A DNA stretch of 32,000 nt. Origin: an uncultured Methanobrevibacter sp. (GTDB taxonomy: Archaea; Methanobacteriota; Methanobacteria; Methanobacteriales; Methanobacteriaceae). The notes below the pieces were generated by a model, which was not told the DNA's origin, did not search any database, and saw only the letters and a list, made by a program, of their open reading frames with translations. Where the stretch lies: assembly GCF_902801725.1 (NCBI RefSeq), contig NZ_CADCJB010000013.1:11302-43301 (forward strand), read 5' to 3'. Position numbers and translations under genes: made by a program. Of the stretch, positions 5,330-32,000 are shown piece by piece (positions within the stretch are counted from its first letter, which is position 1; each line of letters opens with the position of its first letter).

Positions 5330-5343
5330 AATTAGCCTCACTC

Positions 5344-5375: not shown

Positions 5376-5438
5376 GTATGCCTATTTAAATGTGATGTTA
5401 AAATATTAAGTTAAAATAAAAAAAGAAAAAGAAATGGT

Positions 5439-6107: not shown

Positions 6108-6276
6108 TATATCACCTTTGACAAAATGTATTTTGATACTCATATTTATATTTTTTTTTAATTTGTGTGTTTTTCTGAAATTTTCTCAAATTTTTAAAAA
6201 AATAATAATTTTGTTAAATATTGAAACATTTTAAATATTCTTAATTACATACCTTAAAACAATAGGAGACTATATT

Positions 6277-7587: not shown

Positions 7588-7608
7588 ATTTCTTTTTACT
7601 CATTTTTT

Positions 7609-8454: not shown

Positions 8455-8516
8455 AAACATTTAATATATATTAATAAGATATATTTATTTTTGTTAAGAT
8501 TATTTTAGGGGATTAT

Positions 8517-9428: not shown

Positions 9429-9448
9429 TGCTGAGAAATCAGAACAAT

Positions 9449-9790
9449 TTAAAGAGATGTCATTATCTCTAAAAACCACTTTATTATTATTTTTAAGAAT
9501 ATTATTAAACCAATTCCACCAATAAGACCAGTTGTAAATCGCAATGTATTGTTGCTTTCTCTAAATTCAAGAAATTGCGTAAATCCGTCAATTGTTGTAG
9601 GGATTAAAAGAAGCATTGAAATTATTAGCATGTTGATGCTGTAGTCAATTTCATAAAATTGATTGTATATTAAAAAAACAGCCAAACCAGTATAAAACCC
9701 GGTACATCTGGCACAAACTGGAAACTGGTGCCCTTTGATAAAAAAGCTTCTTTCAGGTTTTCTATGGCATATTAAGTTTTTATAATTCAT
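9449..9790 (-). CDS. DUF2085-family small membrane protein
   Basis: CHRKPERSF...CARCTG motif followed by 3-4 TM helices. Size 113 aa. Confidence 0.7.
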
Positions 9791-9877
9791 TTTTATCTCT
9801 TTTATAATTCTTTTAAGATAATTATATATATTCTTGTATACATAAGTTATTGTATAATATATAAAAAGGTTATTACA

Positions 9878-11572
9878 ATGAGAGGCGGAGAAGCGATAAT
9901 TGAATCCCTTAAAAATATGGGGGTTAAAACAATATTTGGTTATCCTGGTGGACAGACCATACCATTCTATGATATGTTATATGATTCAGACATGGACCAT
10001 ATATTAGTTAGACATGAACAATGCGCGGCTCATGCAGCAGACGGATATGCAAGAGCTTCTGGTAAAGTTGGTGTGTGTTTGGCAACTTCAGGTCCTGGAG
10101 CAACCAATCTAGTCACTGGAATTGCGACTGCATACATGGATTCTTCTCCAATTGTGGCTATTACCGGTCAGGTTCCTACTCATTTAATTGGTAATGATGC
10201 ATTTCAGGAAGCAGATATTATAGGAATAACAATGCCTATTACCAAGCATAGCTATCAGCCAAAAGATCCGGATTTGATACCTTCAATGATTAAATCCTCT
10301 TTTGAAATTGCTTCAAGTGGAAGGCCTGGCCCTATTTTGATTGATGTTCCCAAAGAAGTTCAGGAAGGGGAGCTTACAAAATTCGATGATTCATTAATTA
10401 GCACTCCGGGCTACAATCCAAATACTAAAGGCAATATTAGACAAATCAAAAAGGCTCGCGATTTGATAAAGCAATCCAAAAGACCTATGATTATAGCTGG
10501 TGCTGGTGTTATCATATCCAATGCTTGCTGTGAGCTGAAAAAACTTGCAGATACTATTGAAGCTCCAGTCATGACTTCACTATTAGGTAAGGGAGCTATT
10601 GATGAGACTGATGATTTGGCGTTAGGTATGCTCGGTATGCATGGAAGAAAGGTTTCAAATGATTACATTAACGAGTCCGATTTGCTGATAGCAGTCGGTA
10701 TAAGATTTTCAGATAGGACTACCGGAAGGCTGGACAGTTTCGCACCGGATACTAAAGTCATTCATATTGATATAGACCCTGCTGAAATAGGCAAGAATGT
10801 GGATGTTGATTTGCCGATTGTAGGGGATGCAAGAAATGTATTGTCATCATTAAATAAGCTTTTAAAAGATTATGAAGTGTCAAATGATGTTAAATCATGG
10901 GCAAATATGATTCGAGAGAAAAAGCAGGAATTGCTTCCAAGAGTTACTTATGATGATGTACCTTTAAAACCTCAAACAGTTATAAAAGAAATTTCTGAGG
11001 TCTTAACACCTGAATCTATTTTAACAACAGATGTAGGTCAAAATCAAATGTGGGCGGCACATTTCTATAATACTCAAAAACCGCGCAAATTCATTTCATC
11101 CGGAGGTCTTGGGACTATGGGATTTGGATTCCCGTCAGCTATTGGTGCAAAAGTGGCCTGTCCTGATGATCCTGTTGTATCCATTAATGGTGACGGCGGA
11201 TTTTTAATGGTTTGCCAGGAGCTGGCAACTGTCCATGAATATGACATACCTGTCATTGCTGTCGTATTGGAAAACAGGACCTTGGGAATGGTATATCAAT
11301 GGCAAAGCTTATTATATGATGAAAGACACTCTCAAACCTTATTGGGCAATAGTCCGGACTTTGTTAAATTAGCGGAAAGTTTCGGCGTCAATGGAGTTAG
11401 AATTACAAAACCTGGTGAAACAAAAGAGGCGTTATCAAATGCAATTAAGGATAACGAACCGGTTTTATTAAATGTTGTTATTGATTCTGAAGAGGCGCTG
11501 CCGATGCTTCCTCCCGGAGCCGGAATCAATGAGATGATTGGCGAGTACAAACTTGAAAAGGATGTGATTTAA
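9878..11572 (+). CDS. ilvB: Acetolactate synthase, large (catalytic) subunit
   Basis: ThDP enzyme: [23 protein letters not shown], ThDP-binding [17 protein letters not shown]...NGDGGF. Confidence 0.93.
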
Positions 11573-12058
11573 ATGACCTTGGAATATCACGTTATTTCTA
11601 CATTGGTTGAAGATAAACCGGGTGTTTTACAAAAAGTAGCTGGAATGTTTAATAGAAGAGGATTCAACATAGACAGCATAACCGTTGGAAAATCAGAAGT
11701 GGAAGGTCAATCCCGTATGGTAATTACTGTTCATGCAGATGAAAAAGGACTTGAACAGGTTACAAAACAATTAAATAAATTAATTGATGTTATCAAGATT
11801 AAAGATATTACTCAAACTGCTGTTAAAAGGGAATTGTGTCTTGTTAAAGTCTCTGTTCCTAATGCGAAAGCAAGAGCAGAAATAATGCAGTATACAAATA
11901 TTTTCAGAGCCCATATTTTGGATGTTTCAGAGCAGACATTAATGGTTGAGCTTACTGGAGATAAGGAAAAGATTAATGCATTCATATCTTTAGTAGAAAA
12001 TTATGGAATTAAAAGAATAGCCCGTACTGGCCTTACAGCTATGTCAAGGGGAGTATAA
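11573..12058 (+). CDS. ilvN: Acetolactate synthase, small (regulatory, ACT-domain) subunit
   Basis: The start abuts the ilvB stop (TAAATG). ACT-domain N-terminus HVISTLVEDKPGVLQKVAGMFNRRGFNIDSITVG. Confidence 0.9.
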   Translation: MTLEYHVISTLVEDKPGVLQKVAGMFNRRGFNIDSITVGKSEVEGQSRMVITVHADEKGLEQVTKQLNKLIDVIKIKDITQTAVKRELCLVKVSVPNAKARAEIMQYTNIFRAHILDVSEQTLMVELTGDKEKINAFISLVENYGIKRIARTGLTAMSRGV

Positions 12059-12059
12059 A

Positions 12060-12587
12060 ATGACTATATTAGAAAACGTATTAAAAGACAACAAGGAATT
12101 TGTAGAAAACTTTGAAGGCGAAGAAATGTCTCACCATGCAGCTAAAAAATTAGCTATCTTAACCTGTATGGACTGTAGACTAATCGACTTTTTTGAACCT
12201 GCACTCGGTCTTAAAAGAGGGGATGCAAAAATCGTTAGAAATGCCGGAAACTCCATTGTAGGTGAAGATGCAATCAGATCTATTGGTGCAGCTTTATACA
12301 ACCTCGGTGCTGAAGAAGTCATGGTTGTAGGTCACACTGAATGTGGTATGGCTGGCGCAGATGCTGAAGCTTTAAAAGAAAAAATGCTTGCTCGAGGTAT
12401 CAAAGAGGAAGACATTGCAAAATATGATTTGGCTGAATGGATTGGCGGATTCGATGACGAAGAAGAAAACGTTAAAAACGTTTGTGAAAAAATCAAAAAC
12501 CATCCATTGATACCTGATGTACCTGTTCACGGTCTCATAATCGATATTGTTACAGGTGAACTGAAAGTTTTAGTAGATGGTTACTGA
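12060..12587 (+). CDS. Beta-class carbonic anhydrase (Cab-type)
   Basis: Zn-ligand motifs LTCMDCRL and VVGHTECGM (Cys-His-Cys set), size 175 aa. The ATG lies 1 nt after the ilvN stop. Confidence 0.8.
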   Translation: MTILENVLKDNKEFVENFEGEEMSHHAAKKLAILTCMDCRLIDFFEPALGLKRGDAKIVRNAGNSIVGEDAIRSIGAALYNLGAEEVMVVGHTECGMAGADAEALKEKMLARGIKEEDIAKYDLAEWIGGFDDEEENVKNVCEKIKNHPLIPDVPVHGLIIDIVTGELKVLVDGY

Positions 12588-12613
12588 TTCCCATCTATTT
12601 TTTTATTTTTTTC
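12574..12613 (+). terminator. Candidate terminator of the ilvB-ilvN-carbonic anhydrase unit
   Basis: 7-bp stem TAGATGG (12574-12580) / CCATCTA (12591-12597) spanning the stop codon, followed by TTTTTTTATTTTTTT. Confidence 0.45.
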
Positions 12614-12740
12614 TGTAATTAGAGATTATTTCTATACCTAATTTTAGGTTACTTTTATAAATATTGAAAATCATATTTATTAAATGATATTTTGTTTAAT
12701 ATCTAGATTTTAATTAAATTATTTAACGAGATGATTTAAA

Positions 12741-13733
12741 ATGAAAATGTATTACGATGCAGATGTAAATACAGATGCTCTTGAAGGAAAAACCATTGCA
12801 GTAATTGGATATGGTTCTCAAGGAAGAGCACAATCTAGAAACATGGCTGACAGTGGAGCTAATGTTATTGTTGGTGTAAGAGAAAATGGTAGTTCCTGGA
12901 ACTTAGTCAAAGAAGACGGTATGACAGTAAAAACTATCGAAGATGCAGCTAAAGAAGCTGACATTATTCACATTTTGCTTCCTGACGAAATCCAAGAAAA
13001 AGTCTACAATGAACAAATTGCACCATATGTTGAATCTGGCAACACCATTTCATTCTCTCATGGTTACAACATCCACTTCGGTTTAATCAAACCTGATGAA
13101 GATGTAAACATTGTAATGTTTGCACCAAAAGGACCTGGATCCATGGTAAGAAGAACTTACGAAGAAGGATTCGGTATTCCTGGTTTAGTAGCAGTTCAAC
13201 AAGACGCTACTGGTGATGCAATGCAACTTGCATTAGGCATGGCAAAAGCTTGTGGATTAACCAAAGCTGGTGTTTTAGAAACTACTTTCCAAGAAGAAAC
13301 AGAAACTGACTTGTTTGGTGAACAAACTGTTTTATGTGGAGGAATCACTGAATTAATTAATGCAGGTTTCACTACTTTGGTAGAAGCAGGATATCAACCT
13401 GAAATCGCTTACTTTGAAACCTGTCACGAAGTAAAACTTATTGTAGATTTAATCTATGAAAAAGGTTTTGCCGGAATGTGGCACGATGTAAGTAACACTG
13501 CTGAATATGGTGGATTAACCAGAGGTAATAGAATTATTACTCAAGAAGCAAAAGACGGTATGAAAACTGTTTTAAAAGAAATCCAAGATGGAACTTTCAA
13601 AAAACAATGGGCTGAAGAAAACGCTACTGACGGCGCTAACTTAAAAGAAATGAGAGCTGCTGAAAGTCAAAAAGATATCGAAATTGTTGGTGAAAGATTA
13701 AGAAAAGCTTGTGGATTACAAAAAGACGATTAA
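12741..13733 (+). CDS. ilvC: Ketol-acid reductoisomerase (NADP+)
   Basis: [17 protein letters not shown] Rossmann motif, [22 protein letters not shown]. Confidence 0.95.
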
Positions 13734-13775
13734 GTCTTTTTAATCCTTTTACTATTTTTTTTATTTATTTTAAGT

Positions 13776-14789
13776 GTGGTAAACATGGTGTTTATTGGTA
13801 TGGACCATGGAACTACTGGAATCTCTTTTTGCATAATGTCTGATGAAGGGGATGTTATTGATATTTTCAAAATCGGAAGAGAGGAAAGTAAGAAAGGCTT
13901 GGTTTCAGCTTCACAGGAGCTGACCAAGCGTGTTGATTTGGATTCTGTAAAATTGATGGCCATTACCTATGCAATGGGTGACGGTATAAGTAAGATTTTG
14001 CCAGCTGACCAAGTTAAGGATAGGGGAATATTATCAATTAATGGTGCCGGCAAGGTGACTGGTGGAGGAACATCAGTATTTTCTGAATTGCAGGAGTTAA
14101 ATATTCCTTCTATAATGATTCCTGGTCTCCATAAGGATTCTACTTCTCTTGATGAATTATTTAGAGCTGCCTATTCTCATCAGGCAAGTCCGGAAAAGGT
14201 AAGCATTTCATATAATGCTATTAAGGAAACCGGCTGGAGCGATTTTATAGTTGCTGATATATCTTCAAACAGTGTAGATATACTGATTGAAGACGGCAAA
14301 ATCAAAGGGGCAATGGATGCATGCTTGGGCGCAATGGGTATTGTACATGGACCTATTGATCTGGAAATGATAAGAGACATTGATGAAAACAATGCGTCCG
14401 CTAATGATTGTTTTTCAAATGCCGGAGCTATTAAAATTGCCGGAATCGACGGTAAAGTAGCTAACATGAAAGATCAGCTATTGGAAAACTATAGGAACGG
14501 TGATGAAAATGCCAAATTGGCTATTGACACATTAATAATGACCGTTGCTATGGAAATTGCCGGTTTGGATGTGGTCTGTAACAATGAAATTGAAGGTATT
14601 GTTTTGACAGGGTCCGTTGGAAGTGCAACTGAACCGTTTAACTTTGAAGATGAAATCAACAGCTATTTCAAAAATAAGTATCCTTTAAAAGTTATTTCAA
14701 AAGAATCCGGTGCAATTGGTGCTGCACAAATAGCGATGGATGTTTTCAATGGTAAAAAAGAAATCTTAGGAATAGAAGTAGATATCTAA
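13776..14789 (+). CDS. UPF0285 / methanogenesis-marker-12-like protein (ASKHA/BadF-type ATPase fold)
   Basis: N-terminal FIGMDHGTTGISF phosphate-binding motif of the sugar-kinase/actin fold. About 335 aa, sited immediately downstream of ilvC as I recall for Methanothermobacter. The start is GTG 13776 or ATG 13785. Confidence 0.6.
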   Translation: MVNMVFIGMDHGTTGISFCIMSDEGDVIDIFKIGREESKKGLVSASQELTKRVDLDSVKLMAITYAMGDGISKILPADQVKDRGILSINGAGKVTGGGTSVFSELQELNIPSIMIPGLHKDSTSLDELFRAAYSHQASPEKVSISYNAIKETGWSDFIVADISSNSVDILIEDGKIKGAMDACLGAMGIVHGPIDLEMIRDIDENNASANDCFSNAGAIKIAGIDGKVANMKDQLLENYRNGDENAKLAIDTLIMTVAMEIAGLDVVCNNEIEGIVLTGSVGSATEPFNFEDEINSYFKNKYPLKVISKESGAIGAAQIAMDVFNGKKEILGIEVDI

Positions 14790-14793
14790 GATT

Positions 14794-14997
14794 TCAATCT
14801 TCTTTTAAACTAATAAAAATGATATTTCCGCCTTTAATGGTTTCAAGACCATTTTCATTTTCAAGAACAAGGTTTAAATAGTTATCGATAGCAATTACTT
14901 TTCCTTCACTTTGATAGTCGCCTCTTAAATCTACAGTTACATATTTGTCTTTAAATTGGGCAAAAAGTTTATTTACATTATCTTTATCAAAACTCAT
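14794..14997 (-). CDS. Sm-like (LSm/SmAP) RNA-binding protein
   Basis: Sm1-like YVTVDLRGDYQSEGKVIAIDNYLNLVLEN and Sm2-like IKGGNIIFISL. Size 67 aa. Confidence 0.7.
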   Translation of the reverse strand: MSFDKDNVNKLFAQFKDKYVTVDLRGDYQSEGKVIAIDNYLNLVLENENGLETIKGGNIIFISLKED

Positions 14998-15079
14998 TTT
15001 TTCAAATCCTTGGTTATAATAATTCTATTCATATTTTGATGTTTCAACTTTAAATACTTTAATGTTGATAATATATACT

Positions 15080-15223
15080 ATGGCAATTAATCAATTAGAA
15101 GAAAATTTAGAAGCGATTACTAGAACAATTGAACAGTTAAAAAGAGACGGATGCACTGATGAAAAAATTTTAAATGAGCTTCGTGAAGAAAGAGATAAAA
15201 TACTTAAAGATTTAAATTTATAA
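15080..15223 (+). CDS. Small hypothetical helical protein (47 aa), absent from the supplied ORF track
   Basis: ATG 15080 to TAA 15221-15223 translates to MAINQLEENLEAITRTIEQLKRDGCTDEKILNELREERDKILKDLNL. It fills an otherwise empty 230-nt gap and has a TATA-like CTTTAAATAC about 30 nt upstream. Confidence 0.35.
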   Translation: MAINQLEENLEAITRTIEQLKRDGCTDEKILNELREERDKILKDLNL

Positions 15224-18084: not shown

Positions 18085-19440
18085 TTATCCTTCAAGTTCC
18101 TTGGCGGATATGGTCAGGTTTCCTCCAAAGTCAGGCATTGCAGCCACATGTGTGTGAACATAGCTTGCAAGTGTGTTTCTGCATATGAATCCATCCTGGT
18201 TGTTGTATGAGCCTTTTCCTCTTAGGATATCGAATGCCAGTTTGTGGTCGATGTTTGTGGAATCAACCAGTACCTTTGAATAATGGAACTCATGGCCATG
18301 GAATTTTTCACCTTTTTTGGATATGATGTTGTCCTCTTTGACTTCGGCAATGGTGTACTTCAGTGCCTGCACCCTATCTGTTAGAATTGCCTTGTAAGGA
18401 TATACATTTACAACTTTATCTTCGTGGATGGAATTCATAAGATACATTAAACCACCACATTCGGCAAAAATAGGCCTATCTTCCAGGTGGAAAGTATGGA
18501 TTTCTTGAAGCATTCTTTCATTTGCACTAAGCTCTTTTGAAAAGAGTTCGGGATATCCTCCTCCAATATACAATCCGTCTACATCGGGCAACCCTTCATC
18601 GTTTAATGGTGAAAAATATTCTATTTTAGCATTGTTTGCTTCCAATGATTCAATATTTTCCTTATAATAAAAATTGAACACTTCATCATATGCCACTCCG
18701 ATTTTAACTTTCTGCTTATTTAGTTTATTCCAGATGGGAACGATATTTGATGTAATCTTCGGAGCTTCTTTTGCAATTTCCACCAGTCTGTCCAAATCGA
18801 TTGAATTCTTTATTACTTCAGACCAGATGTCAATAAATTTGAGAGAATTTTCTTTTTCTCGAGCAGGAACAAGGCCTAAATGCCTTTCTTCAATTGATAT
18901 GGAATCATCACGAATAATCCCTCCGATAACTTCGGTTTTTGTTATTTCTTCAATTGATCTCTTTGTTTTTTCGTAGTGTGCCTTGTTTTTAACCTTGTTC
19001 AGGATAACTCCTGCAATATTTATTTCAGGATCCAATGCCTTAAAGCCCAAAACCAAAGCTGCGGCGCTTTTGACCAAACTTCTTGAGTTTATGATTAGGA
19101 TAACCGGTGCCTTTAGGGATTTTGCTATTGAAGCTGTACTTCCGATATCGTTGACAGAATCGATTCCCTCATAAAGTCCCCGAACACCTTCGATTACAGC
19201 AATGTCCTTTCCATCCATAGCTTTCAGATAGGAGTCTCTCACCTGTCCGGATTCCATAAAAAAAGAATCCAAGTTTCTGGATACATTACCGGTAGCTAAT
19301 GTATGGTAAGACGGGTCTATATAATCAGGTCCAACTTTAAATGGTTGAACATTGTATTTTTCACTTAAAGCTTTCATAATCCCGGTAGATATTGTGGTTT
19401 TTCCAACAGCACTACCAGTCCCTGCTAAAATAATTCTCAT
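18085..19440 (-). CDS. cbiA: Tetrapyrrole a,c-diamide synthase (cobyrinate or Ni-sirohydrochlorin a,c-diamide synthase)
   Basis: P-loop [14 protein letters not shown]-terminal GATase domain with the nucleophile box [11 protein letters not shown] and HGHEFHYS. The start is taken at ATG 19440 (MRIILAG...) rather than 19473. The CbiA and CfbB paralogues cannot be told apart by eye. Confidence 0.88.
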
Positions 19441-19538
19441 ATTTAGTAATTTGCATCTTCTTTTTATAAACAATTATTGTATAAATCATTTTATATAATA
19501 TTAAAAATAAAATTTAAACCATAATATATGGTGATTAA

Positions 19539-22725: not shown

Positions 22726-23007
22726 ATGGGATTTTGTAATTCATGTGGAAGACCAATCGTAAGGGAAGATTACGGTACTAACAAGGATGGTAGTCCAAAC
22801 GATGAATTTTGTATAGACTGTTATCAGAATGGTGAATATACGGAGCCAGATATTACTCTTAATGAAATGATTGTAAGAAAAACCAAAGAAATGATGGAAA
22901 AAAATCCTAGATTGGCGGAAACACAGGCAACAGGTATTACTGCGATGTTCATTCCTGGCTTGAAAAGATGGAACCCTGAGTTTCAGGATGATTACAAGAC
23001 TCTTTAA
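22726..23007 (+). CDS. Putative zinc-ribbon domain protein
   Basis: CNSCGRP...(GT.KDGS)...FCIDCYQNGEYTEPDITLNEMI matches the putative zinc ribbon layout (CxxC...CxxC). SD AAGGAG upstream. Confidence 0.65.
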   Translation: MGFCNSCGRPIVREDYGTNKDGSPNDEFCIDCYQNGEYTEPDITLNEMIVRKTKEMMEKNPRLAETQATGITAMFIPGLKRWNPEFQDDYKTL

Positions 23008-23858
23008 TTGCCACCATTTAAAATAAATTCTTTAACTTTATTGGCGATGTATTCATCGTGGCTTCTATTTGTTTTTATGTTATAGATTTCTTCTTGTAAA
23101 TCATTATATTTATCAACTAAATCATTATATTCAAGACGTAGGGAATCGTAATCTTTTTCTAAATCTTCATTAAGCTCATAAATCTCTGCGTAACTGGTTT
23201 TTGTACTGAGATTTTCATGCTTTAGCTGATCATATTTGGAAGTGATCTTATCATAGCTGCTCTTGATGTTTTGATGCTCTTCTTTTAAGTTGGAACATTT
23301 GCTTTTCAGGTTTTTGTTTTCTTCTTTAATGCTTGAATACTTGGTTTTGAGATTCTCATTTTCGGTTTTCATATTGACGAATTTGGTTTTGAGATTTTCA
23401 TTTTCTATAATTAATTTTGAATGTTTGTCTCTGATGTTTTCATTCTCTTTTTTCAAATTGTCAATATTGTTTTCGTTTAAGGTATTGTATTTGTTTTCAA
23501 TTTCAGTTATGGCATCATTTTTTGCAGCAATTTCAGCTTTTAACTCTTCAATTTCTTTTTTATATTCTAAAGTAGATGGATTAACGTTATTTTCAAGTTG
23601 ATCTCTCAATTCTTTCACTTCCTGTACATACAAATAATTAGCTATTTTTAAAGATTCACTTTCTTCCTCTCTACTTTTAAAGGTTTCAATTTCGCTTTGG
23701 GGTATGATTAATACTTCTTCCTGGTTATTGTAAATGTCTTCATTTTTAGGAACGGTGATTTGAATTTGTTCTGTTGTGTATTTCTTTCTCTCACCGTTTT
23801 TCAAAGTTCTATGATATTCCCTTGAATATTTTTTTACAATACCTTTTCCTACTTTCAT
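23004..23858 (-). CDS. Hypothetical coiled-coil protein with a basic N-terminus and 14-aa tandem repeats
   Basis: Long E/K/N-rich heptad-like sequence. The N-terminal 40 aa are basic (MKVGKGIVKKYSREYHRTLKNGERKKY). No recognisable enzymatic motif. Confidence 0.6.
   Translation of the reverse strand: MKVGKGIVKKYSREYHRTLKNGERKKYTTEQIQITVPKNEDIYNNQEEVLIIPQSEIETFKSREEESESLKIANYLYVQEVKELRDQLENNVNPSTLEYKKEIEELKAEIAAKNDAITEIENKYNTLNENNIDNLKKENENIRDKHSKLIIENENLKTKFVNMKTENENLKTKYSSIKEENKNLKSKCSNLKEEHQNIKSSYDKITSKYDQLKHENLSTKTSYAEIYELNEDLEKDYDSLRLEYNDLVDKYNDLQEEIYNIKTNRSHDEYIANKVKEFILNGGN
23238..23447 (-). repeat. Five tandem 42-nt (14-aa) in-frame repeats inside the coiled-coil gene
   Basis: The units are ENENIRDKHSKLII, ENENLKTKFVNMKT, ENENLKTKYSSIKE, ENKNLKSKCSNLKE and EHQNIKSSYDKITS. 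At DNA level, TTGGTTTTGAGATT(C/T)TCATTTTC occurs at 23341-23363 and 23383-23405. Confidence 0.75.
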
Positions 23859-23954: not shown

Positions 23955-23996
23955 AGTAATACTTTTTTTCGATATTTGTGAAATAAGTAATACTTT
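23955..23996 (+). promoter_or_regulatory. Two exact copies of palindromic motif AGTAATACT(TT) upstream of the CobN-like operon; candidate operator overlapping the promoter
   Basis: AGTAATACTTT at 23955-23965 and 23986-23996, 31 bp apart. The core AGTA-A-TACT is a 4-1-4 inverted repeat. The second copy runs directly into the TATA-like TTTAAATATA (23994-24003), about 48 nt before the start codon. Confidence 0.4.
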
Positions 23997-24050: not shown

Positions 24051-27000
24051 GTGGGTAATATTATGTTTTGTTTAAAAAATAAAAAGTATTTTTGCGTATT
24101 AATTTTATTAATAACGATTTTTATCATTCCTTATTCATTTGCATTGGATAATTCCACTTCAGATGATTTGCCTATTTCAAGTGATGATAATGCATTATTA
24201 AATGATAATATTGAAGAATCGGTTGGCAACGATAATCTGATGAGTGTAGATTCATCCAAATCTCAAAATATTACTTTATTTATTGTAAGCGACAATCCAG
24301 GGACTAATATTTTGGATAAAGCTAGCAGTGAATTAAGCAGTTCCCAAAATTTAAGTAATATTAATTTGGTTGTTCGCAGCGGTGAACAGATAAAGGAAAT
24401 GAGTGATTTTGAATTAATAAGTCTTCTTTCTTCCAGCGACGGATTTGTCGGTGAATGGATAAGTAGTGATGTAGATTCAGTTTTAACAAATGTTTTGGGT
24501 AAATATCCTGAATTGTCAAATAAGGAATTGTTTCTTATATTGGAACCGCCTTCAGGCAAAATGAACTCCGGTTCCAGTTCAATAGGTTTAATCAGAAACA
24601 ATACAATAAATTATCAAAAGATTTTCGCATCATTTTCAGACCAGGAATTGATTTCATATTTTGAAAACACAAAAAGAGGCAAATACTATACTGATGTTTA
24701 TAATTACATTGACAGGAGCGCTACAAAATTTGACCCACTGTTCAATCAGATGGTTCTTTATAAGGATATAAACGATAAAGAAAATCTTAAAAATCAAATA
24801 TTATACGCATTAAACTTTTTAGGCACATCTTTTGAAGTCAATGCACCGACATTTACAGGAGTAAAACAGTATGGAATTTATAGGGACAGATGGTATTCCC
24901 TTGAAGAGTATATTGCAGAATTTTTCAATCCGAATAATTCCAGAACTGTCGGAATATTGGAAAGTACAATGTATGTTGAATCTCAGCAATTGCATCCATG
25001 CTACAACATTATCGAATCATTGGAATCAAGAGGATATAATGTAATCCCTATCTTTGCTGCAGGGGGGTCTGCTGAACAATTGAAAGTGATGATTGAATCC
25101 TGGACCAGTGCAAAGACTGACTATTCCGGATTTTTAAGAAATTCATCCAATTATGATATTTATGTGGATGCAATAGTGTCCATGGTTGCTTATGGTGTTG
25201 GGGGTCAGAATTTTTCCAATGCTACAAACTTCTTTGAACAGGTGGGCGTGCCTGTATTCAGGGCAGTACACTCTGATTATGTTTCCAATGAGATGTGGGA
25301 ATTGGGATCTACCGGTCTTACAACAGAAAAAAGTGACAAATGGTGGCACATTACCATTGCCGAAACTCAGGGAATAATTGATGCAACATTTGTTGGCGGT
25401 CAATCAAAGTACATTTCCAGCAGGACAGGAGCTCAGATTACTACCTACATACCTCACGCCAGAAACATTGATTTGCTGGCTGACAGAATAGATTCCTGGG
25501 TTGATTTAAAATACACTTCAAATATCGATAAGCTAATCTCAATAATCTATTACAATTATCCTCCTGGAAAACAGAATATCGGTTCAAGTTACCTGGATAC
25601 AATAACCAGTATTTACAACATGCTGATAACTTTAAAAAATGCCGGATATGATGTTGGCGAGTTGCCAGCTAATGTTTCTGAACTTGAAGATTTAATGCTT
25701 AAGTGCGGTATTAATGTAGCTACCTGGGCACCGGGAGAGCTTGAAAAATTGGCTAACCAGTCAGGCGTTACATTACTGCCGGTTAAAGAATATACCAAAT
25801 GGTTCAATTCATTGGATGAAATTGTTAAAATACAGGTCACTGAAGGGCCTGTTGCTTACATAGGCGAGCTTTCAAGACGTTCAGTTGAGCTAAACTACAC
25901 AGTAACAATCGCAGATACAATTGATGATTGGTACAATCAGGTTGTTGCCCTGCTTCCAGAGGAAAATGCCGATAAGTCTAAAAGCGTTTTAAACAATATC
26001 GTATCAAGCTTAAAAAATTATACAAAGACTCAGGATGCAAAATATTATAAGCTGTTCTTAAGGTACTTTGAAGAATTCAAAAAGTTAAATATTTCCGGAT
26101 TAAACGGTTGGGGTAATGCTCCGGGCAATGTAATGGTTGTTAATAGAAACGGAGTTGATTATTTTGTCATACCTGGCTTAACTTATGGAAATGTATTTAT
26201 CGCCCCTGAACCTCAAAGGGGATGGGAATCTGACATTGAAAACTTATATCACTGTACTGCAGTAGCTCCAACCCATCAGTATCTGGCGGCTTACTACTAT
26301 ATGCAGACCAAATACCACAATGCAATGATTTTCGTCGGAAGGCACGCTACACATGAATGGCTTCCTGGAAAGGAAATTTTACTATCATCCACTGATTACG
26401 GATCAGTTGTGGTAGGTGATGTCCCGCAACTGTACTTCTATATTGCAGATGGTTTGGCTGAAGCTATTCAGGCAAAAAGAAGAGGTTTTGCAGTTATCAT
26501 TTCACATTTGACTTCTCCAATGTCTTACACCCATTTATATGGTAACTTGACCGTTGCGGCTAGTCTGGTTAAGGAATATTCTGCTAATCCAAATGTTCGT
26601 ACTGCTAGTGAATTGCGCAATCTAATTATAAAAAATGATTACTACACTAATTTGGGCCTTTCAAAAGGAGAAGTAATGAATATCTCTGATACCTTACTTG
26701 TTGAGAAGGTAAATAAGTTTTTAGTGGAGATGCAGTCTACCTTGTATCCATTGGGGCTTCATGCATTGGGTCAGTCCTGGAGTGAACAGGACTTGGCAAG
26801 CACAGTTTCAGCAATGTTGTCTTATGATTATGTTCTTGATAATAATCAGGGTGTTTTAAATTTATTCAGTGAACTTTCAAGCTACTATTATTCAAAAGGA
26901 TATAGCCAGCTATCCGCATTTGAAAGGGAATTTATTTTAAACAAATCCTATGATATTGTAAAGGCACTGATTTACTGGGATGTAGACACGGTCAATAGCC

Positions 27001-29114
27001 TGTTAATAAGTCAAAATCAAAAATTCAACAATCCTACATTTTTTGCCTGCCTTGAATTGGCTAAAAAGTATATAGGCCTTATCAATTTCAGTGTTTCAAA
27101 CGAATTGGATGCAATGCTCGACGGATTAAACGGCAGATATGTTCCAGTTGGTGAAGGTGGAGAACTTGTAATAAAACCTGCAATTCTTCCGACAGGTAAA
27201 AACATGTTCCAGGACCAATCATCTGAGCTTCCGACAATGGATGCATGGGAATATGCGAAAAATTTGGCTTTATTAACACTTGCTGATTTAAATGACACAA
27301 CAGAGAAGATTATCATGGGTATCTGGTGTGTAGAAACCGCAAGAGATGACGGAGCGTTGGTTTCAACCGTTCTTTACTTGTTGGGTATGAAACCTGTCTG
27401 GACAGATTCATCAAGTGCGGGTTATGACGATGAAGGAAATCCGACAGGTAAAAAAGTGGGTGCAATGCCTGAAGTTATTAAACTGGATGATTTGACCCGT
27501 CCTGCCGGTTGGGCCAAAAAAAGAATTGACGTGACTGTAATAACTAGTGGTTTATTCAGGGATTTATACTCATCTCAATCAATTCTTATGGATAATGCTT
27601 ACCGTGTTGCGCTTGCAAGGTCCTATCTGACATTGATTAATAATAATGCATTAATGAACTCTAAAAATGGTAATCAATTGCGCGAGGCTCTTGAAGGTGT
27701 AATGCAAAGTATCAGCTATTATGGTATTTATAATGAGCCATTGGATTCCAATTATGTGGCACAGCACTGGATTGAAGATACTTTATTCTATTTAAGTCAG
27801 GGCTATAATGCAACTTATGCAGGCGAATGTGCAATAACAAGAATATTTGCACCTCCAAATGGTGATTATGGTGCCGGAATATCAAAATTAGTATCAATGT
27901 CATGGACATGGAACGATACTAGTGAACTTGCAGACTTTTACCTTGGAAGAATGGGTAACATGTATTCAAAAAATTATTGGGGAGATACAAACCCATTGGT
28001 ATTCCTGAGGGCTCTGTCAAACTCAGACACAATTGTGGCCAGTCGTAATACCAACCAATACGGTGTACTCGACAACGACGACTTCTTTGATTATTGGGGA
28101 GGTTTGTCAATGACTGTAGAAAATATTTCCGGAAAAGCTCCTAAATTCAATGTATTGATGTATTCAGATAAAAACAATGCATACATTTCATCTTTGGAGG
28201 AAGTAATGTATAAGGAAATCGCCGCAAGATATGATAATCCTGACTGGATTAAAGGAATGATGAAAGAGGGTTACAGCGGTGCTCGTTACATGTCAAATAA
28301 GTTTGTAAGTAATTTGCATGGATGGCAGGTAACAAGACCATCAGCCGTATCAAATGACTTGTGGAATAGAATTTACAATACTTATTACAATGATAAATAC
28401 AATATTGGAGTTAAAGATTGGCTAATGAGTGGAAACAATGCATATTCACTTATTTCCATGAGTGGAACAATGCTTACAACAATCCATGATGGTTATTGGA
28501 AGGCAGATAAGGCTACAATTAGCGATATAGCTAATACATGGGCTCAAGCAACTGTTCAAAATGGTGTGGCCTGTTGTGATTGCAGTTGCGGTAATATTGC
28601 AATGATGCAATGGGCTGTCCAATATGTCAATCCGGATATTTTAGCACAACTGCTTCCTAAATTATATGAAGCAACCAAAAATCCGGTATTTAAGAATAAT
28701 ACTCAATCAACTCAGCCGCCTGAAACTGATATAAAAGATAATCCGAAGGAAGCTTCAACTCAAAATCCTGTAAAGGGATCAACTTCATCTTCTACTATTA
28801 AAACAAATTCCAGCTCCACAACCACTCAAACTACTGCTCAAAGCGGAAGCAATGCTCAGGGTGATGCCTTTTCAAATGTTGGTGCTGGAAGTGAATCAGT
28901 TCAGGCTGGAAGTTCATCTGCAGAGGGAGCAGATGTCAAGAAAGCAGTTGAAATAAATCCAATATCCTCTCAATCAGCAAGTGAAGTAGGATTGTCAATA
29001 GTAGCTGTATTGGCTATTTTATGCTTGATTATGGTTGTGGCTGTTGGATACTTTAGAAATAATGATAATAAAGATAAAGTTCAAGATTTAGATAAGCTAT
29101 TTAATGAAAGATAG
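24051..29114 (+). CDS. Exported, membrane-anchored CobN/Mg-chelatase-family (class I chelatase large-subunit-like) protein
   Basis: CobN/ChlH signatures GRHATHEWLPGKE (26337-26375) and LDGLNGRYVPVGEGGELVIKPAILPTGKNMF (27117-27209), plus QYGVLDNDDFFDYWGG. N-terminal signal peptide KNKKYFCVLILLITIFIIPYSFA|LD. Ser/Thr-rich stalk (about 28695-28985). C-terminal TM VGLSIVAVLAILCLIMVVAVGYF followed by a basic tail. An alternative start is ATG 24063. Confidence 0.9.
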   Translation: MGNIMFCLKNKKYFCVLILLITIFIIPYSFALDNSTSDDLPISSDDNALLNDNIEESVGNDNLMSVDSSKSQNITLFIVSDNPGTNILDKASSELSSSQNLSNINLVVRSGEQIKEMSDFELISLLSSSDGFVGEWISSDVDSVLTNVLGKYPELSNKELFLILEPPSGKMNSGSSSIGLIRNNTINYQKIFASFSDQELISYFENTKRGKYYTDVYNYIDRSATKFDPLFNQMVLYKDINDKENLKNQILYALNFLGTSFEVNAPTFTGVKQYGIYRDRWYSLEEYIAEFFNPNNSRTVGILESTMYVESQQLHPCYNIIESLESRGYNVIPIFAAGGSAEQLKVMIESWTSAKTDYSGFLRNSSNYDIYVDAIVSMVAYGVGGQNFSNATNFFEQVGVPVFRAVHSDYVSNEMWELGSTGLTTEKSDKWWHITIAETQGIIDATFVGGQSKYISSRTGAQITTYIPHARNIDLLADRIDSWVDLKYTSNIDKLISIIYYNYPPGKQNIGSSYLDTITSIYNMLITLKNAGYDVGELPANVSELEDLMLKCGINVATWAPGELEKLANQSGVTLLPVKEYTKWFNSLDEIVKIQVTEGPVAYIGELSRRSVELNYTVTIADTIDDWYNQVVALLPEENADKSKSVLNNIVSSLKNYTKTQDAKYYKLFLRYFEEFKKLNISGLNGWGNAPGNVMVVNRNGVDYFVIPGLTYGNVFIAPEPQRGWESDIENLYHCTAVAPTHQYLAAYYYMQTKYHNAMIFVGRHATHEWLPGKEILLSSTDYGSVVVGDVPQLYFYIADGLAEAIQAKRRGFAVIISHLTSPMSYTHLYGNLTVAASLVKEYSANPNVRTASELRNLIIKNDYYTNLGLSKGEVMNISDTLLVEKVNKFLVEMQSTLYPLGLHALGQSWSEQDLASTVSAMLSYDYVLDNNQGVLNLFSELSSYYYSKGYSQLSAFEREFILNKSYDIVKALIYWDVDTVNSLLISQNQKFNNPTFFACLELAKKYIGLINFSVSNELDAMLDGLNGRYVPVGEGGELVIKPAILPTGKNMFQDQSSELPTMDAWEYAKNLALLTLADLNDTTEKIIMGIWCVETARDDGALVSTVLYLLGMKPVWTDSSSAGYDDEGNPTGKKVGAMPEVIKLDDLTRPAGWAKKRIDVTVITSGLFRDLYSSQSILMDNAYRVALARSYLTLINNNALMNSKNGNQLREALEGVMQSISYYGIYNEPLDSNYVAQHWIEDTLFYLSQGYNATYAGECAITRIFAPPNGDYGAGISKLVSMSWTWNDTSELADFYLGRMGNMYSKNYWGDTNPLVFLRALSNSDTIVASRNTNQYGVLDNDDFFDYWGGLSMTVENISGKAPKFNVLMYSDKNNAYISSLEEVMYKEIAARYDNPDWIKGMMKEGYSGARYMSNKFVSNLHGWQVTRPSAVSNDLWNRIYNTYYNDKYNIGVKDWLMSGNNAYSLISMSGTMLTTIHDGYWKADKATISDIANTWAQATVQNGVACCDCSCGNIAMMQWAVQYVNPDILAQLLPKLYEATKNPVFKNNTQSTQPPETDIKDNPKEASTQNPVKGSTSSSTIKTNSSSTTTQTTAQSGSNAQGDAFSNVGAGSESVQAGSSSAEGADVKKAVEINPISSQSASEVGLSIVAVLAILCLIMVVAVGYFRNNDNKDKVQDLDKLFNER

Positions 29115-29125
29115 TAGGTGTTTTA

Positions 29126-29833
29126 ATGGATGCAATTAATATTTTATGGCAACTTGGGATATTGTCAGCGGTTTTAATTTTTGGAGTCAAATTGGGCCTT
29201 GCTACAGGCCTTGCGAACATGTCAAAAAAGTATTTGGCATTGGTGTCAATAGGATATGGTGGGGGAGTTTTAGTACTCACAGAAATTTCTTCATTCTTCA
29301 CAGATCAAATCACTGATTTGATTTATACTTATAACTTTGAATTTTTCCTGATTATGGCGATAATCATGATTTTAGCGGGAATATTTACAATAAGGGAGTA
29401 TAAGGTATTTGAAAAAAATACCACTGCAGCCACTTGTATGGCGGTCGTTGCTCCATGTCCTTGTTGTTTTGGTTCTATTATTGTGAGTATAATGCTTGTA
29501 GCGCCTACTGTAGGTTTAGGGTTGATGAATTTAAGTGTAATCGTAGCTTTGGCGTTAGTTTTAACAATTGTTGTAACTTATTACGCATCAAATTACCTCG
29601 TAAAATTCATTAATAAGCCTTATCCAATAGTATTGGGCAATTTCATGTTCTTTTTGGGAATTTACTTCCTATTGTCTGCATTGTTCTTGCCGAATATTAC
29701 TGCAATGATTCAAAATCCAATGGAAGCAATATCAATATCATCTCCATATTCTCTGATTGGAGCTTTAGTATTGGTGCTTGTTATAGTGGCTATCGGCGGA
29801 ATAATCTCTAGGAGAAACAGTAATTTTAATTAG
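29126..29833 (+). CDS. Polytopic membrane protein (DUF2162-like predicted transporter; HmuT-like position) with an intramembrane CPCC motif
   Basis: About 7 TM helices. C-x6-CPCC (TCMAVVAPCPCCFGS, 29435-29467) sits within a hydrophobic segment. SD AGGTG (29116-29120), 11 nt after the CobN-like stop. The family assignment is from memory. Confidence 0.75.
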   Translation: MDAINILWQLGILSAVLIFGVKLGLATGLANMSKKYLALVSIGYGGGVLVLTEISSFFTDQITDLIYTYNFEFFLIMAIIMILAGIFTIREYKVFEKNTTAATCMAVVAPCPCCFGSIIVSIMLVAPTVGLGLMNLSVIVALALVLTIVVTYYASNYLVKFINKPYPIVLGNFMFFLGIYFLLSALFLPNITAMIQNPMEAISISSPYSLIGALVLVLVIVAIGGIISRRNSNFN

Positions 29834-29841
29834 GTGATTTA

Positions 29842-30486
29842 ATGGTAACTACAATTCCTGGAAGTGAAATATTAACATCAACATTGAATATGATTTCACA
29901 AAGTCTGCAGATTCCTGTAATCATATTTCTGGTGGTTTTTGCAGTCTTTGCAGTACTTGCAATCGGAGGATTGATTTCTGAGTATACTTCAAGAAAGAAA
30001 ATCACTCCCGAGCTGATTGAAGAATTGATTTATTCAATATCAAATGCAACTTCTTTGGATGAAATAAAAAACGTTATTAAAAACGCTAAAATTTATGAAT
30101 CTCAAAAAGTTGTTTTAATTAAGATTTTACGTGCAAATTCCCTAACTCCAGAGTCAAGACATGCACTTGCTAAGAAACTGGTTGAATTTGAAGAAAATAA
30201 ATTTGCAAAGTCAATCGAAAGAACCGATGTTGTCACGCGTATAGGACCTACATTGGGTTTGATGGGTACATTAATTCCTATGGGTCCGGGTCTTGCTGCA
30301 TTGGGAGCTGGTGATGTAAATACGTTGGCTAATGCTATTATTGTTGCTTTTGATACAACTGTTGTAGGTATTGGTGCTGGAGCTGTAGCTTATTTTGTAT
30401 CTAAAGTAAGGCGCAGATGGTATGAAGAGTACTTGTCCAATTTGGATGCGCTTGCAGATGCATTGCTTGATAAGTTAAATCAATAA
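29842..30486 (+). CDS. MotA/TolQ/ExbB-family proton-channel protein
   Basis: Three-TM layout with a long loop after TM1. Signature RIGPTLGLMGTLIPMGPGL and TM3 AFDTTVVGIGAGAVAYF. A perfect SD AGGTGAT (29832-29838) overlaps the upstream stop. Confidence 0.85.
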   Translation: MVTTIPGSEILTSTLNMISQSLQIPVIIFLVVFAVFAVLAIGGLISEYTSRKKITPELIEELIYSISNATSLDEIKNVIKNAKIYESQKVVLIKILRANSLTPESRHALAKKLVEFEENKFAKSIERTDVVTRIGPTLGLMGTLIPMGPGLAALGAGDVNTLANAIIVAFDTTVVGIGAGAVAYFVSKVRRRWYEEYLSNLDALADALLDKLNQ

Positions 30487-30492
30487 GAGGTT

Positions 30493-30831
30493 TTGGTGAT
30501 GGTTCGAGATAAATCTAAAAAACGATTTTCAGAAGGTGAAGAGGACCCGATGGCTGGAACTTCGAATCTTGTAGATGCAATGCTTGTTATTGCAGTTGGC
30601 TTATTGATTTTCGTTGTTATAAGTTGGAATATGCAGAGTGTGGTTTTCCAGGATAATCAAAATCCGCAGAAAGCTATTGAGCAGTCTTCACCTGATGTAA
30701 CGGAAGTCAGTGAAGGACAGACATTGAATGAAACTCCGGAATCTTCAAACAGTTCTGGTCAGGGTTATATGGAAATGGGTAAAGTCTATAAAGATCCTTC
30801 AACGGGCAAGTTGATTATGGTGGAAGGTTAA
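30493..30831 (+). CDS. Bitopic ExbD/TolR-like protein (DUF2149-like; HmuV-like position)
   Basis: Single TM NLVDAMLVIAVGLLIFVVI resembles the ExbD/TolR helix (..IDVMLVLLIIF..), with Asp retained at 30574-30576. Short polar extracytoplasmic tail. The start is ambiguous (TTG 30493 / GTG 30496 / ATG 30499), after AAGAGG (30485-30490). Confidence 0.7.
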   Translation: MVMVRDKSKKRFSEGEEDPMAGTSNLVDAMLVIAVGLLIFVVISWNMQSVVFQDNQNPQKAIEQSSPDVTEVSEGQTLNETPESSNSSGQGYMEMGKVYKDPSTGKLIMVEG

Positions 30832-30833
30832 TA

Positions 30834-30986
30834 AGTAATACTTTTTACTTTTGGATTTGCTCCATTAGTATTACTTTTTTCCTCTTTTTTTTAAATAATT
30901 ATTACTTTTTTTTAAAAAAACTTTACTTTAATATATAGTTTTCTCTTTTTTAGAGCAAATAAAAAGTTTTATAAGAGTATTACTTT
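30834..30986 (+). promoter_or_regulatory. Cluster of the same AGTA-W-TACT(TTT) motif between the operon end and the adhesin-like gene
   Basis: AGTAATACTTT at 30834-30844; AGTATTACTTT at 30867-30877 and 30976-30986; degenerate ATTATTACTTT at 30898-30908. Spacings are 33, 31 and 78 bp. The last copy runs into the TATA-like TTTATAAT (30984-30991), about 85 nt upstream of ATG 31075. Confidence 0.4.
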
Positions 30987-31074: not shown

Positions 31075-32000
31075 ATGAAAAGTAAGAGTTTAATATTTTC
31101 AATATTTTTGGTTTTCATAATTGTTATTAGTGTCAGCGCCATATCCGCTCAGGATGTGGACGATGCTATCTCTACAACTGACGATGAAACAGTAATTGGG
31201 GATTCTGAACAAGTTTCAGGTACTGTTTCAGGAGATGTGGATGTTACAACTGAAAATCCATGGACTACAAGTGGAGAATTAAGTTATGATATTCCTGCCG
31301 ATGCTAAGACAATTAAAAGTGCTGATGTTTATGTGAATGTTTATAGTGGTAGTGCAAAAAATACTCATGGTGCAAATGCAAATGTAAGTATTTCAACCGC
31401 TAATGGAAATGAAAGTTACTCTGAATCTTTATGGACTGAAGACGGTTCAGCTGACGGTACTGTTTACAAAGTAAATAATCATACTACCAAATGCTATTCC
31501 GATTTCATGGTTCATTATGATGTAACCAGTTTAGTTCAAGGATTAAATGGAAGTAATTTAAAGATTAAAGTCGATACATTTAAGATGGAAAATAAGTCAT
31601 TTGACGGTAGGATAAAACTAATCGGATTAGTTTTAGCTTATGATGATGGAGATGATGATGTAATCAATTATTTAATTGATGATAATCAAATTTGGACTAA
31701 TTCCAATATAACTATTCCTTTTAACACTTTATCATTTAATAATGTGTTTGAATCAAATCTGATTAATATTGCTCTTTCATCAGTTGATGGAACTTATAAA
31801 TTCAATAATGAATTTTTAACAGATTCCAAACATAAATCCGGTAATTATTATCAATATAATGAATGGAATGTAACTAATTATTTCAAAAACGGTCAAAACA
31901 ATGAATTGAATGTAATTCCTGGTCAAGGTTCCTACGGATCTTCTTATAAAAGTGTTCTTTCAGTATTGACCGGAAAATCTGTTATAAATTCAGCTGCTAT
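31075..32000 (+). CDS. Secreted adhesin-like protein, N-terminal part (continues beyond the window; not in the ORF track because no stop is reached)
   Basis: I translated from ATG 31075 to the window end and found no stop. Signal peptide MKSKSLIFSIFLVFIIVISVSAISAQD. The beta-rich domain (ADVYVNVYSGSAKN..., FDGRIKLIGLVLAYDDG) resembles, from memory, the DUF3344-type N-terminal domain of Methanobrevibacter adhesin-like proteins. Confidence 0.7.
   Translation, partial: MKSKSLIFSIFLVFIIVISVSAISAQDVDDAISTTDDETVIGDSEQVSGTVSGDVDVTTENPWTTSGELSYDIPADAKTIKSADVYVNVYSGSAKNTHGANANVSISTANGNESYSESLWTEDGSADGTVYKVNNHTTKCYSDFMVHYDVTSLVQGLNGSNLKIKVDTFKMENKSFDGRIKLIGLVLAYDDGDDDVINYLIDDNQIWTNSNITIPFNTLSFNNVFESNLINIALSSVDGTYKFNNEFLTDSKHKSGNYYQYNEWNVTNYFKNGQNNELNVIPGQGSYGSSYKSVLSVLTGKSVINSAA

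Follow-up and report, generated by a model that had tools for sequence, protein, structure and literature searches.

What does a proton-driven stator of the ExbB/ExbD kind do in a cell that has no outer membrane? Motors of this type are textbook devices for passing energy across the periplasm to the outer membrane. The question is raised by two adjoining genes, open reading frame 3 (ORF3) and ORF4, in a 32,000-nucleotide stretch of DNA from a gut methanogen, an uncultured Methanobrevibacter sp. (contig NZ_CADCJB010000013.1, positions 11,302 to 43,301 of the forward strand), which we refer to as the window. An original prediction, made from the sequence alone, took these genes for an ExbB/ExbD-like pair with no TonB, Tol or flagellar partner nearby, and looked for the energised client in the same operon.

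Our preferred answer, to which we give a probability of roughly 60%, is that the products of ORF3 and ORF4 assemble into a proton-conducting stator of ExbB/ExbD type, a member of the HmuU/HmuV subfamily (MotA_ExbB plus DUF2149) that operates without TonB or an outer membrane and is co-transcribed with its probable clients. These would be a surface CobN/HmuS-like (de)chelatase with a conserved C-terminal transmembrane (TM) helix and DUF2162, a six-TM protein with a CPCC motif. On our best reading, the stator energises the acquisition of metals or metallo-tetrapyrroles at the cell surface; the client and the mechanism are what we infer. Directly documented are the parts, their topology, their conserved residues and the obligate co-encoding of an ExbB-type subunit with a partner that carries an aspartate in its TM helix. 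The features concerned are the following.

24051..29114, + strand: CobN/HmuS-like class I (de)chelatase, 1687 amino acids (Pfam CobN-Mg_chel, E 7e-227).
29126..29833, + strand: DUF2162 polytopic membrane protein in the 'HmuT' position, 235 amino acids, about six TM helices (Pfam DUF2162, E 3.6e-65).
29842..30486, + strand: ORF3, ExbB/TolQ-like proton-channel subunit (HmuU-type), 214 amino acids (Pfam, Foldseek, alignment).
30499..30831, + strand: ORF4, DUF2149 (HmuV-type) minimal ExbD-like subunit, 110 amino acids (Pfam, homologue alignment).
30574..30576, + strand: GAT codon of the TM Asp of ORF4 (D28 counted from a TTG start, D26 from the ATG), candidate proton-accepting residue (invariance, ExbD alignment).

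Sequence, model and alignment confirm that ORF3 is a genuine ExbB/TolQ-type protein, beyond a chance match. It scores 40.8 bits against Pfam MotA_ExbB, above the curated cut-off of 22.9 (E 2.2e-10). A Foldseek search with its AlphaFold2 model placed ExbB, TolQ, MotA or PomA chains at all of PDB ranks 1-47, with a template modelling score of up to 0.67 against ExbB and about 200 of the 214 residues aligned. The model was built from a shallow alignment (34 close sequences), which explains the low confidence of its TM helices (predicted local distance difference test, pLDDT, of 55-70, with a mean of 73 for the whole protein). Three TM helices are present, the first two of them separated by a helical domain in the cytoplasm, and the ExbB/TolQ fold is complete: TM1 is N-out, the cytoplasmic domain follows, and TM2 and TM3 form a hairpin of long helices.

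E. coli ExbB and TolQ align with ORF3 from end to end, and P136, G139, L140, T143, A169, T173 and G176 are common to all three. ORF3 thus shares with the ExbB-ExbD and TolQ-TolR systems not only fold and topology but also the positions of the TM2 and TM3 threonines and of Pro and Gly residues. T143 in TM2 corresponds to ExbB T148 and TolQ T145, and T173 in TM3 to ExbB T181 and TolQ T178, counterparts that are functionally important. Within the ORF3 subfamily these channel-lining residues are present in 61 of 61 members (T143) and in 54 of 61 (T173). The subfamily also has a signature of its own, GLMGTLIP[LM]GPG. When the single sequence is searched against the PDB, the matches are weak (TolQ, E 0.1; ZorA, E 0.34). 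The nearest relatives of both ORF3 and ORF4 come from Methanobrevibacter, at 87-95% identity, and the relatives listed in the ORF3 homologue search are all at least 86% identical.

ORF4 belongs to DUF2149 (Pfam, E 6e-23). An alternative start at TTG 30493 would give a protein of 112 amino acids (30493-30831), and the true start is probably ATG 30499 (110 amino acids), because close homologues are mostly 109-111 amino acids long (97-98% query coverage) and AGAGG lies upstream. The protein has a basic cytoplasmic N-terminus that leads into a single TM helix (residues 26-44 by hydropathy), followed by a variable polar linker and a conserved C-terminal motif. Since a Lys/Arg-rich N-terminus precedes the helix, the topology is predicted to be N-in. 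Like ExbD and TolR, ORF4 is therefore a single-pass N-in protein with an Asp near the cytoplasmic end of its helix, in the register of ExbD D25, and its gene adjoins that of the ExbB-like partner on the downstream side.

Searched in full with HMMER, 1.84 billion representative proteins yielded 349 relatives. The query was aligned with 109 of these, chosen by clustering at 50% identity, and the TM Asp is kept in 107 of the 110 sequences; the three exceptions are chimeric or frameshifted fragments. The TM signature of the family, P-x2-G-x2-N-L-x-D-x-M-L-V-[FL]-A-x-G, resembles that of ExbD/TolR, I-N-[VI]-x-P-x-[IL]-D-V-[ML]-L-V-L-L. Using hhalign, the Asp falls on ExbD D25 and TolR D23, in a match of just 22 columns (E 1.2e-3, probability 19%). 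The 66 residues that follow the helix are mostly gappy, variable polar linker; about 20 residues at the C-terminus are conserved and carry the motif G-x-V-Y-x-D-P-x-T-G-K-[LM]-[IY]. Where ExbD and TolR have a periplasmic domain, ORF4 has just this motif. Pfam ExbD (PF02472) is not matched by ORF4 at E <= 0.01, and only three of 94 family members match it weakly (best E 0.003). A PDB profile search gave an ExbD TM peptide as its sole match (E 4.6), and a PDB search with the single sequence gave no meaningful match. ORF4 thus appears to resemble the TM core of ExbD, yet without detectable membership of the ExbD family.

The original prediction fares differently for the two subunits. The MotA/TolQ/ExbB architecture that it read from ORF3, with the TM3 Thr in AFDTTVVG (residues 169-176), is upheld by the Pfam, Foldseek and alignment results. 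Its ExbD-like ORF4 holds for the TM Asp at 30574-30576, which aligns with ExbD D25, and fails for the ExbD profile and the periplasmic domain. It had also named the loss of the TM Asp from ORF4 homologues as an observation that would count against the idea; instead, this residue is invariant in all 107 intact sequences.

What might such a pair drive? The two genes are the last of four that lie in a row on the + strand (window 24051-30831) with gaps of 8-12 nucleotides. The CobN-like gene, the DUF2162 gene, ORF3 and ORF4 are one operon, and the identical order is found in orthologous Methanobrevibacter and Methanobacterium loci. Compared with their orthologues, the operon genes have ratios of nonsynonymous to synonymous substitution rates of 0.03-0.15 (synonymous sites being saturated), which indicates purifying selection. 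Just as had been predicted for TonB, Tol and flagellar partners, a scan of 24 other window ORFs and the annotation of the orthologous locus showed no gene of these kinds, nor any AAA+ chelatase gene (ChlI/D, CobS/T), and the host has no outer membrane.

By hydropathy, the CobN-like protein begins with a signal-like helix (residues 14-32) and continues through a Ser/Thr-rich linker to a C-terminal TM anchor (1646-1664) that ends in GYFR. Because of the signal-like N-terminus and the C-terminal TM helix, we predict that its catalytic body is located on the outer side of the cell membrane. The DUF2162 protein has an intramembrane APCPCC motif (residues 109-114, window 29450-29467). All 18 of the DUF2162 proteins next to CobN-like genes carry a Cys-Pro-Cys-type motif (APCPCC in most, PCPFC in two Firmicute copies), which is absent from DUF2162 copies in modules linked to Peripla_BP_2/FecCD ATP-binding cassette (ABC) transporters. 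The motif suggests a route for thiophilic metals. From its distribution, DUF2162 may comprise two functional subtypes. Relaxed Pfam scans of 27 DUF2162 members gave no second family, and a single-sequence AlphaFold2 model was unusable (pLDDT 51).

To see whether these neighbours are general, we scanned an alignment of the ExbB-like family over species-representative genomes, searching the ORFs of the matched loci with purpose-built hidden Markov models. At least 597 loci matched, and the following counts come from the best 80 of them, 50 from Methanobacteriaceae and 30 from bacteria (mostly Firmicutes, some Actinomycetota). DUF2149 adjoins the ExbB-like gene in all 80 (archaeal 50/50, bacterial 30/30) and lies directly downstream of it in 78. 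DUF2162 lies directly upstream of the ExbB-like gene in 39 of 50 archaeal and 3 of 26 bacterial loci. A CobN-like gene is adjacent in 13 of 34 archaeal and 3 of 17 bacterial loci, counted solely where at least 6 kb of upstream sequence was available. In other modules the pair adjoins, or lies within, Peripla_BP_2-FecCD-ABC-ATPase-FmdE cassettes, or it adjoins CbiM or large NosD/beta-helix/PKD surface proteins; in Firmicutes the surface proteins of such modules carry Oxidored_molyb-like, Fn3_assoc, Big_2 or SLH domains. Coriobacteriia and Clostridia, looked up separately, gave the same picture, and genomes have several paralogous modules each. The ExbB-like/DUF2149 pair is thus an invariant unit whose neighbourhoods consistently concern the acquisition of metals or metallo-tetrapyrroles, and most of its hosts have no outer membrane.

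These counts qualify the original prediction in two respects. Its proposal that the client is encoded in the same operon stands in so far as the operon partners are the best candidates, and is too narrow in that CobN is one client class among several. A predominance of pairs away from CobN-like genes, which it had listed as a refuting finding, was half observed: apart from the 13 of 34 archaeal loci with CobN, pairs lie by FecCD/Peripla_BP_2, CbiM or surface proteins.

The survey also bears on a different explanation, namely that the pair drives transport across the cytoplasmic membrane by powering or gating the DUF2162 permease or a FecCD ABC importer, while the CobN-like protein merely prepares the substrate. 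In archaeal loci DUF2162 is found directly upstream of the ExbB-like gene more often than CobN is adjacent, many pair modules sit inside Peripla_BP_2-FecCD-ATPase cassettes, and reviews of P. gingivalis have proposed HmuTUV as a heme/iron transporter across the inner membrane (PMC12094164). On the other hand, almost no bacterial locus has DUF2162, while an ectoprotein with a C-terminal anchor nearly always adjoins the pair. ABC importers already own an ATPase, and we know of no 5:2 stator that powers a permease. We consider transport of this kind rather unlikely.

Nor is a quite different stator role (Tol-like envelope maintenance, motility or Zorya-type phage defence), or a decaying relic of horizontal transfer, easy to reconcile with these neighbourhoods, which remain metal or tetrapyrrole related throughout. 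ORF3 does have a generic weak similarity to ZorA (PADLOC, E 0.0025, besides the PDB match at E 0.34), and the patchy distribution of homologues between archaea and Firmicutes suggests horizontal transfer. Yet no ZorB/C/D, TolA/B/Pal or motility genes are nearby, and a relic would hardly show such strong purifying selection or several paralogous modules per genome. Moreover, expression has been reported in Methanothermobacter and M. ruminantium (PMC6528648, PMC5816558). We give this group of explanations very little credence. A Zorya or other defence role is rejected: ORF3 lacks the long C-terminal tail of ZorA, and ORF4 has no PADLOC match.

A closer precedent for the four-gene order is found in Bacteroidota. 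The hmu operon of Porphyromonas, Prevotella and Bacteroides ends with hmuS (CobN-like), hmuT ('hypothetical'), hmuU (MotA/TolQ/ExbB) and hmuV (DUF2149) (PMC11681262, PMC10434189), and the window has a matching series of CobN-like protein, membrane protein of about 235 residues, MotA_ExbB and DUF2149. We compared it with the loci of Prevotella nigrescens (L098) and Bacteroides finegoldii (L099; loci are cited here by our L numbers). Bacteroidota HmuU is 30-33% identical to ORF3 (E 5e-28), HmuV is a DUF2149 protein (E 2e-34) that matches ORF4 in its TM Asp and in overall layout, and HmuS has N- and C-terminal membrane helices, as does the window protein. In the hmuYRSTUV operon, HmuU and HmuV are PG1555 and PG1556 of P. 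gingivalis and BT_0492 and BT_0491 of B. thetaiotaomicron. HmuT, in contrast, belongs to no Pfam family, and neither BLASTP nor hhalign (probability 1.7%) relates it to DUF2162, so its identity with DUF2162 is rejected. As judged from these comparisons, the window operon is an archaeal counterpart of hmuS-T-U-V, in which S, U and V are homologous and an unrelated membrane protein fills the T slot. The pair is thus a distinct use of the motor family, as originally proposed, in being TonB-less; it is no isolated oddity, since it belongs to a widespread, annotated hmuSTUV-type family with at least 597 loci.

The Bacteroidota operon could also point the other way, to a conventional ExbBD-like energiser that serves a TonB-like transducer and a receptor encoded elsewhere. 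There, hmuU and hmuV share an operon with hmuR, and HmuU/HmuV have been drawn as powering the TonB-dependent receptor HmuR (Nath et al., PMC12583661). Unlike that operon, the one in the window has neither hmuY nor hmuR; no TonB-like gene occurs in the window, and neither TonB nor a TonB-dependent receptor recurs as a neighbour family in the 80 loci. DUF2149, in addition, lacks the periplasmic domain by which ExbD engages TonB. Methanobacteriaceae, Firmicutes and Actinomycetota have no outer membrane in which such a receptor could sit, and we regard this explanation as highly improbable.

HmuS is a heme dechelatase that works anaerobically (Nath et al. 2025, PMC12583661), and a signal-like N-terminus and a C-terminal TM helix have been reported for it (PMC12583661, PMC13227078). 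HmuTUV is treated as uncharacterised (PMC12094164, PMC13227078), and according to Nath et al. (PMC12583661) archaea have no complete hmu operons and the role of archaeal CobN homologues is unclear. In our literature search we found no paper on DUF2162 and no dedicated study of archaeal ExbB-like genes, archaeal 'exbB' being mentioned in passing only. The best solved relative of the window CobN-like protein is HmuS (9d26, E 2e-91), with ChlH and CobN behind (about 1e-79). The superfamily-wide His, H538 in HmuS, is kept (GRHATHEW). The HmuS-specific His-1209 and Glu-1212 are both replaced by Asp (DNDDFFDYWGG against SLDHVYEFMGG), as they are in the nine Methanobrevibacter orthologues in which the motif was found. 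Strict orthology with HmuS is rejected on account of the change at His-1209.

CobN-type enzymes are normally driven by cytoplasmic AAA+ ATPases. The large subunit of the class I chelatases CobNST and ChlHID is homologous to the window protein, which keeps the superfamily-wide His. Compared with those enzymes, however, it is predicted to be extracellular and membrane-anchored, and it is paired with a proton-channel couple, no AAA+ partner being found in the window or the orthologous locus. The AAA+ ATPases ChlI/D and CobS/T cannot reach a protein outside the cell. A stator could fill this gap as follows. Protons would pass by the invariant TM Asp of ORF4, placed inside an ORF3 oligomer, and the resulting motion would be handed to the membrane-anchored ectoenzyme and/or DUF2162. 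Such mechanical energy would take the place of the AAA+ ATPases that serve cytoplasmic class I chelatases, and might drive the removal of metal from an environmental metallo-tetrapyrrole or the release of the product. The freed thiophilic metal (Fe, Co or Ni) could then enter via the CPCC protein. The published biochemistry is compatible with a missing membrane energiser, without being proof of one.

How would the motion reach an ectoprotein? The clients of ExbBD and TolQR, TonB and TolA, are anchored by an N-terminal helix, whereas the candidate clients here are anchored by a C-terminal one. Every complete CobN-like protein linked to a pair has at its C-terminus a TM helix closing with G-[YF]-[FYLA]-[RKM]; this ending occurs in archaea, in the one complete Firmicute protein and in a gammaproteobacterium, and not in Bacteroidota. 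The original suggestion that the CobN-like anchor is the point of contact thus gains plausibility from the conserved ending. A similar module, in which [YH]-E-[VI] and a polar stretch of about 15 residues lead to a TM helix and GY[FM][RK], is carried by non-homologous ectoproteins just upstream of other pairs, namely FmdE-domain proteins and small DUF11-like proteins, and Firmicute neighbours of the pair likewise end in a C-terminal anchor. In the window the module is the C-terminus of the CobN-like protein (28986-29114), and it is also seen at L029 5518-8607, L059 9113-9958, L061 8985-9893 and L097 5268-9569. When the module was screened as a regular expression ([YH]-E-[VI]...TM...G-[YF]-x-[RK]), 16 of 19 motif-bearing proteins lay within 3 kb upstream of a pair on the same strand, a result confounded by shared ancestry and by an ad hoc pattern and hence a lead, not statistical proof. 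The module could be a docking element for the motor, or merely a lineage-specific anchor.

The pair family would then seem to be a portable power source for modules that acquire metals and tetrapyrroles. Its occurrence in archaea and monoderm bacteria sets it apart from ExbBD and TolQR, the 5:2 motors of Gram-negative bacteria. A broader proposal can be offered only tentatively, as something possible but short of probable: HmuU/HmuV-type pairs may be a TonB-independent branch of ExbB/ExbD, found in archaea, monoderms and some diderms, that powers ectoproteins anchored by a C-terminal TM helix. In the case of CobN/HmuS, the pair would replace the AAA+ ATPase and so allow energy-dependent (de)metallation of tetrapyrroles outside the cytoplasm.

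Several points weigh against a proton-driven stator with these clients, and we gather them here. The TM3 Glu of ExbB (E176) and TolQ (E173) is not kept in ORF3, where Val168 is aligned with it; D171, three residues or one helical turn further on and present in 55 of 61 subfamily members, may or may not substitute for it. Homology between ORF4 and ExbD is unproven, the likeness being limited to 22 TM columns at a probability of 19%, and the folded periplasmic C-terminal domain (about 90 residues in ExbD/TolR) is absent from ORF4. With CobN adjacent in 13 of 34 archaeal and 3 of 17 bacterial loci, the pair is not dedicated to this enzyme. The scarcity of DUF2162 in bacteria (3 of 26), together with an unrelated HmuT, weakens models that require DUF2162. 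Since His-1209 is Asp in the window protein, neither its substrate nor even the direction of its reaction is fixed, and according to the literature HmuS on its own, purified and without HmuTUV, still achieves a poor turnover of 1-2 cycles. That the subunits form a complex, its stoichiometry, a flux of protons and coupling to a client are all things that we infer. With these points counted, we still rate the permease/ABC, Ton and defence/Tol/relic explanations lower than a TonB-less stator for metal or tetrapyrrole acquisition.

Energy transfer to the outer membrane is the textbook task of these motors. A different class of client is implied by a conserved branch that occurs in archaea and in bacteria with a single membrane, always has a stripped-down ExbD-like subunit as its partner and is located in operons for metal and tetrapyrrole acquisition. 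This bears on the role of HmuT/U/V in the heme harvesting that is common in gut Bacteroidota, on CobN-type enzymes that work outside the cell and on the purpose of the many 'CobN' paralogues of methanogens. If the broader proposal is true, the role of HmuUV in the heme system of Bacteroides and Porphyromonas would be reassigned. For rumen and gut methanogens, with their high demand for Ni, Co and Fe, it could be a significant route of metal scavenging. The questions of HmuTUV and of an 'extracellular class I chelatase' thereby become directly testable.

Some bacterial loci deserve separate mention. In an anaerobic gammaproteobacterial cbi (B12) operon (L097, a contig from a metagenome-assembled genome (MAG), 5268-15163), the gene for a periplasmic CobN-like protein with a signal peptide and a C-terminal anchor precedes an ExbB-like gene, DUF2149, cobA, cbiX and cbiC; the ExbB-like gene is short (145 amino acids, truncated). 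This arrangement contradicts a published claim that CobN operons never occur with Hmu-like genes. Two Firmicute loci have DUF2162, the ExbB-like gene and DUF2149 followed by a CobN-like gene, one of the CobN-like proteins being cut by the contig end. In L031 (a 'Clostridia bacterium' MAG) and L047 (an 'Actinomycetota' MAG), the ExbB-like proteins are 80% and 53% identical to ORF3, and L047 carries the full CobN-DUF2162-ExbB-DUF2149 order; these are probably mis-binned methanogen contigs, or else recent transfers. In other Firmicute and Actinomycetota loci (L006-L008, L067-L075, L087-L096), the pair is flanked by surface proteins in which Fn3_assoc/CHB_HEX_C_1, Big_2 or SLH domains accompany an Oxidored_molyb-like one. 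Transporters of the FecCD/Peripla_BP_2 kind are often near these pairs, as is a Shr-like heme-binding SLH protein in L006/L008.

The operon is also flanked by a candidate regulatory motif, at the following places.

23955-23963 and 23986-23994, + strand: two copies of AGTAATACT, 31 bp apart, candidate operator in the promoter region of the operon.
30834..30984, + strand: intergenic region with oligo-T runs and three AGTAWTACT sites (30834, 30867 and 30976), from sequence inspection and motif statistics.

The palindrome-like AGTAWTACT has five exact sites in the window against 0.4 expected, and all of them lie in the two intergenic regions that flank the operon. Paired copies, about 32 bp apart, recur in L016-L022, L029, L030, L037 and L040. 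In several orthologous loci they precede the CobN-like gene by 30-100 bp (by 145-250 bp in L018 and L019), and in related loci they occur in intergenic (promoter) regions of cbiM or ectoprotein genes. These operons may share a regulon, possibly a metal-responsive one, with the motif as its operator. The oligo-T runs after ORF4 are likely an archaeal terminator. A riboswitch upstream of the operon is rejected, as the window has no Rfam match.

The remaining scanned genes of the window are housekeeping. A second neighbouring gene related to tetrapyrroles, at 18085-19473 (- strand) and thus 4.6 kb upstream of the CobN-like one, encodes a CobB/CobQ-type amidotransferase (CbiA/CfbB-like a,c-diamide synthase). 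Divergent from the operon promoter region, 23004-23858 (- strand) encodes a highly repetitive coiled-coil-like protein of 284 amino acids with ENLK repeats (ENENLKTK...), whose counterpart in the orthologous locus L001 has no Pfam family on record. Directly downstream of the operon, 31077-32000 (+ strand) is the start of a large secreted adhesin-like protein; the L001 counterpart has 1385 amino acids with DUF3344 and Big_1 domains. This gene lies behind the three AGTAWTACT sites and may be co-regulated with the operon.

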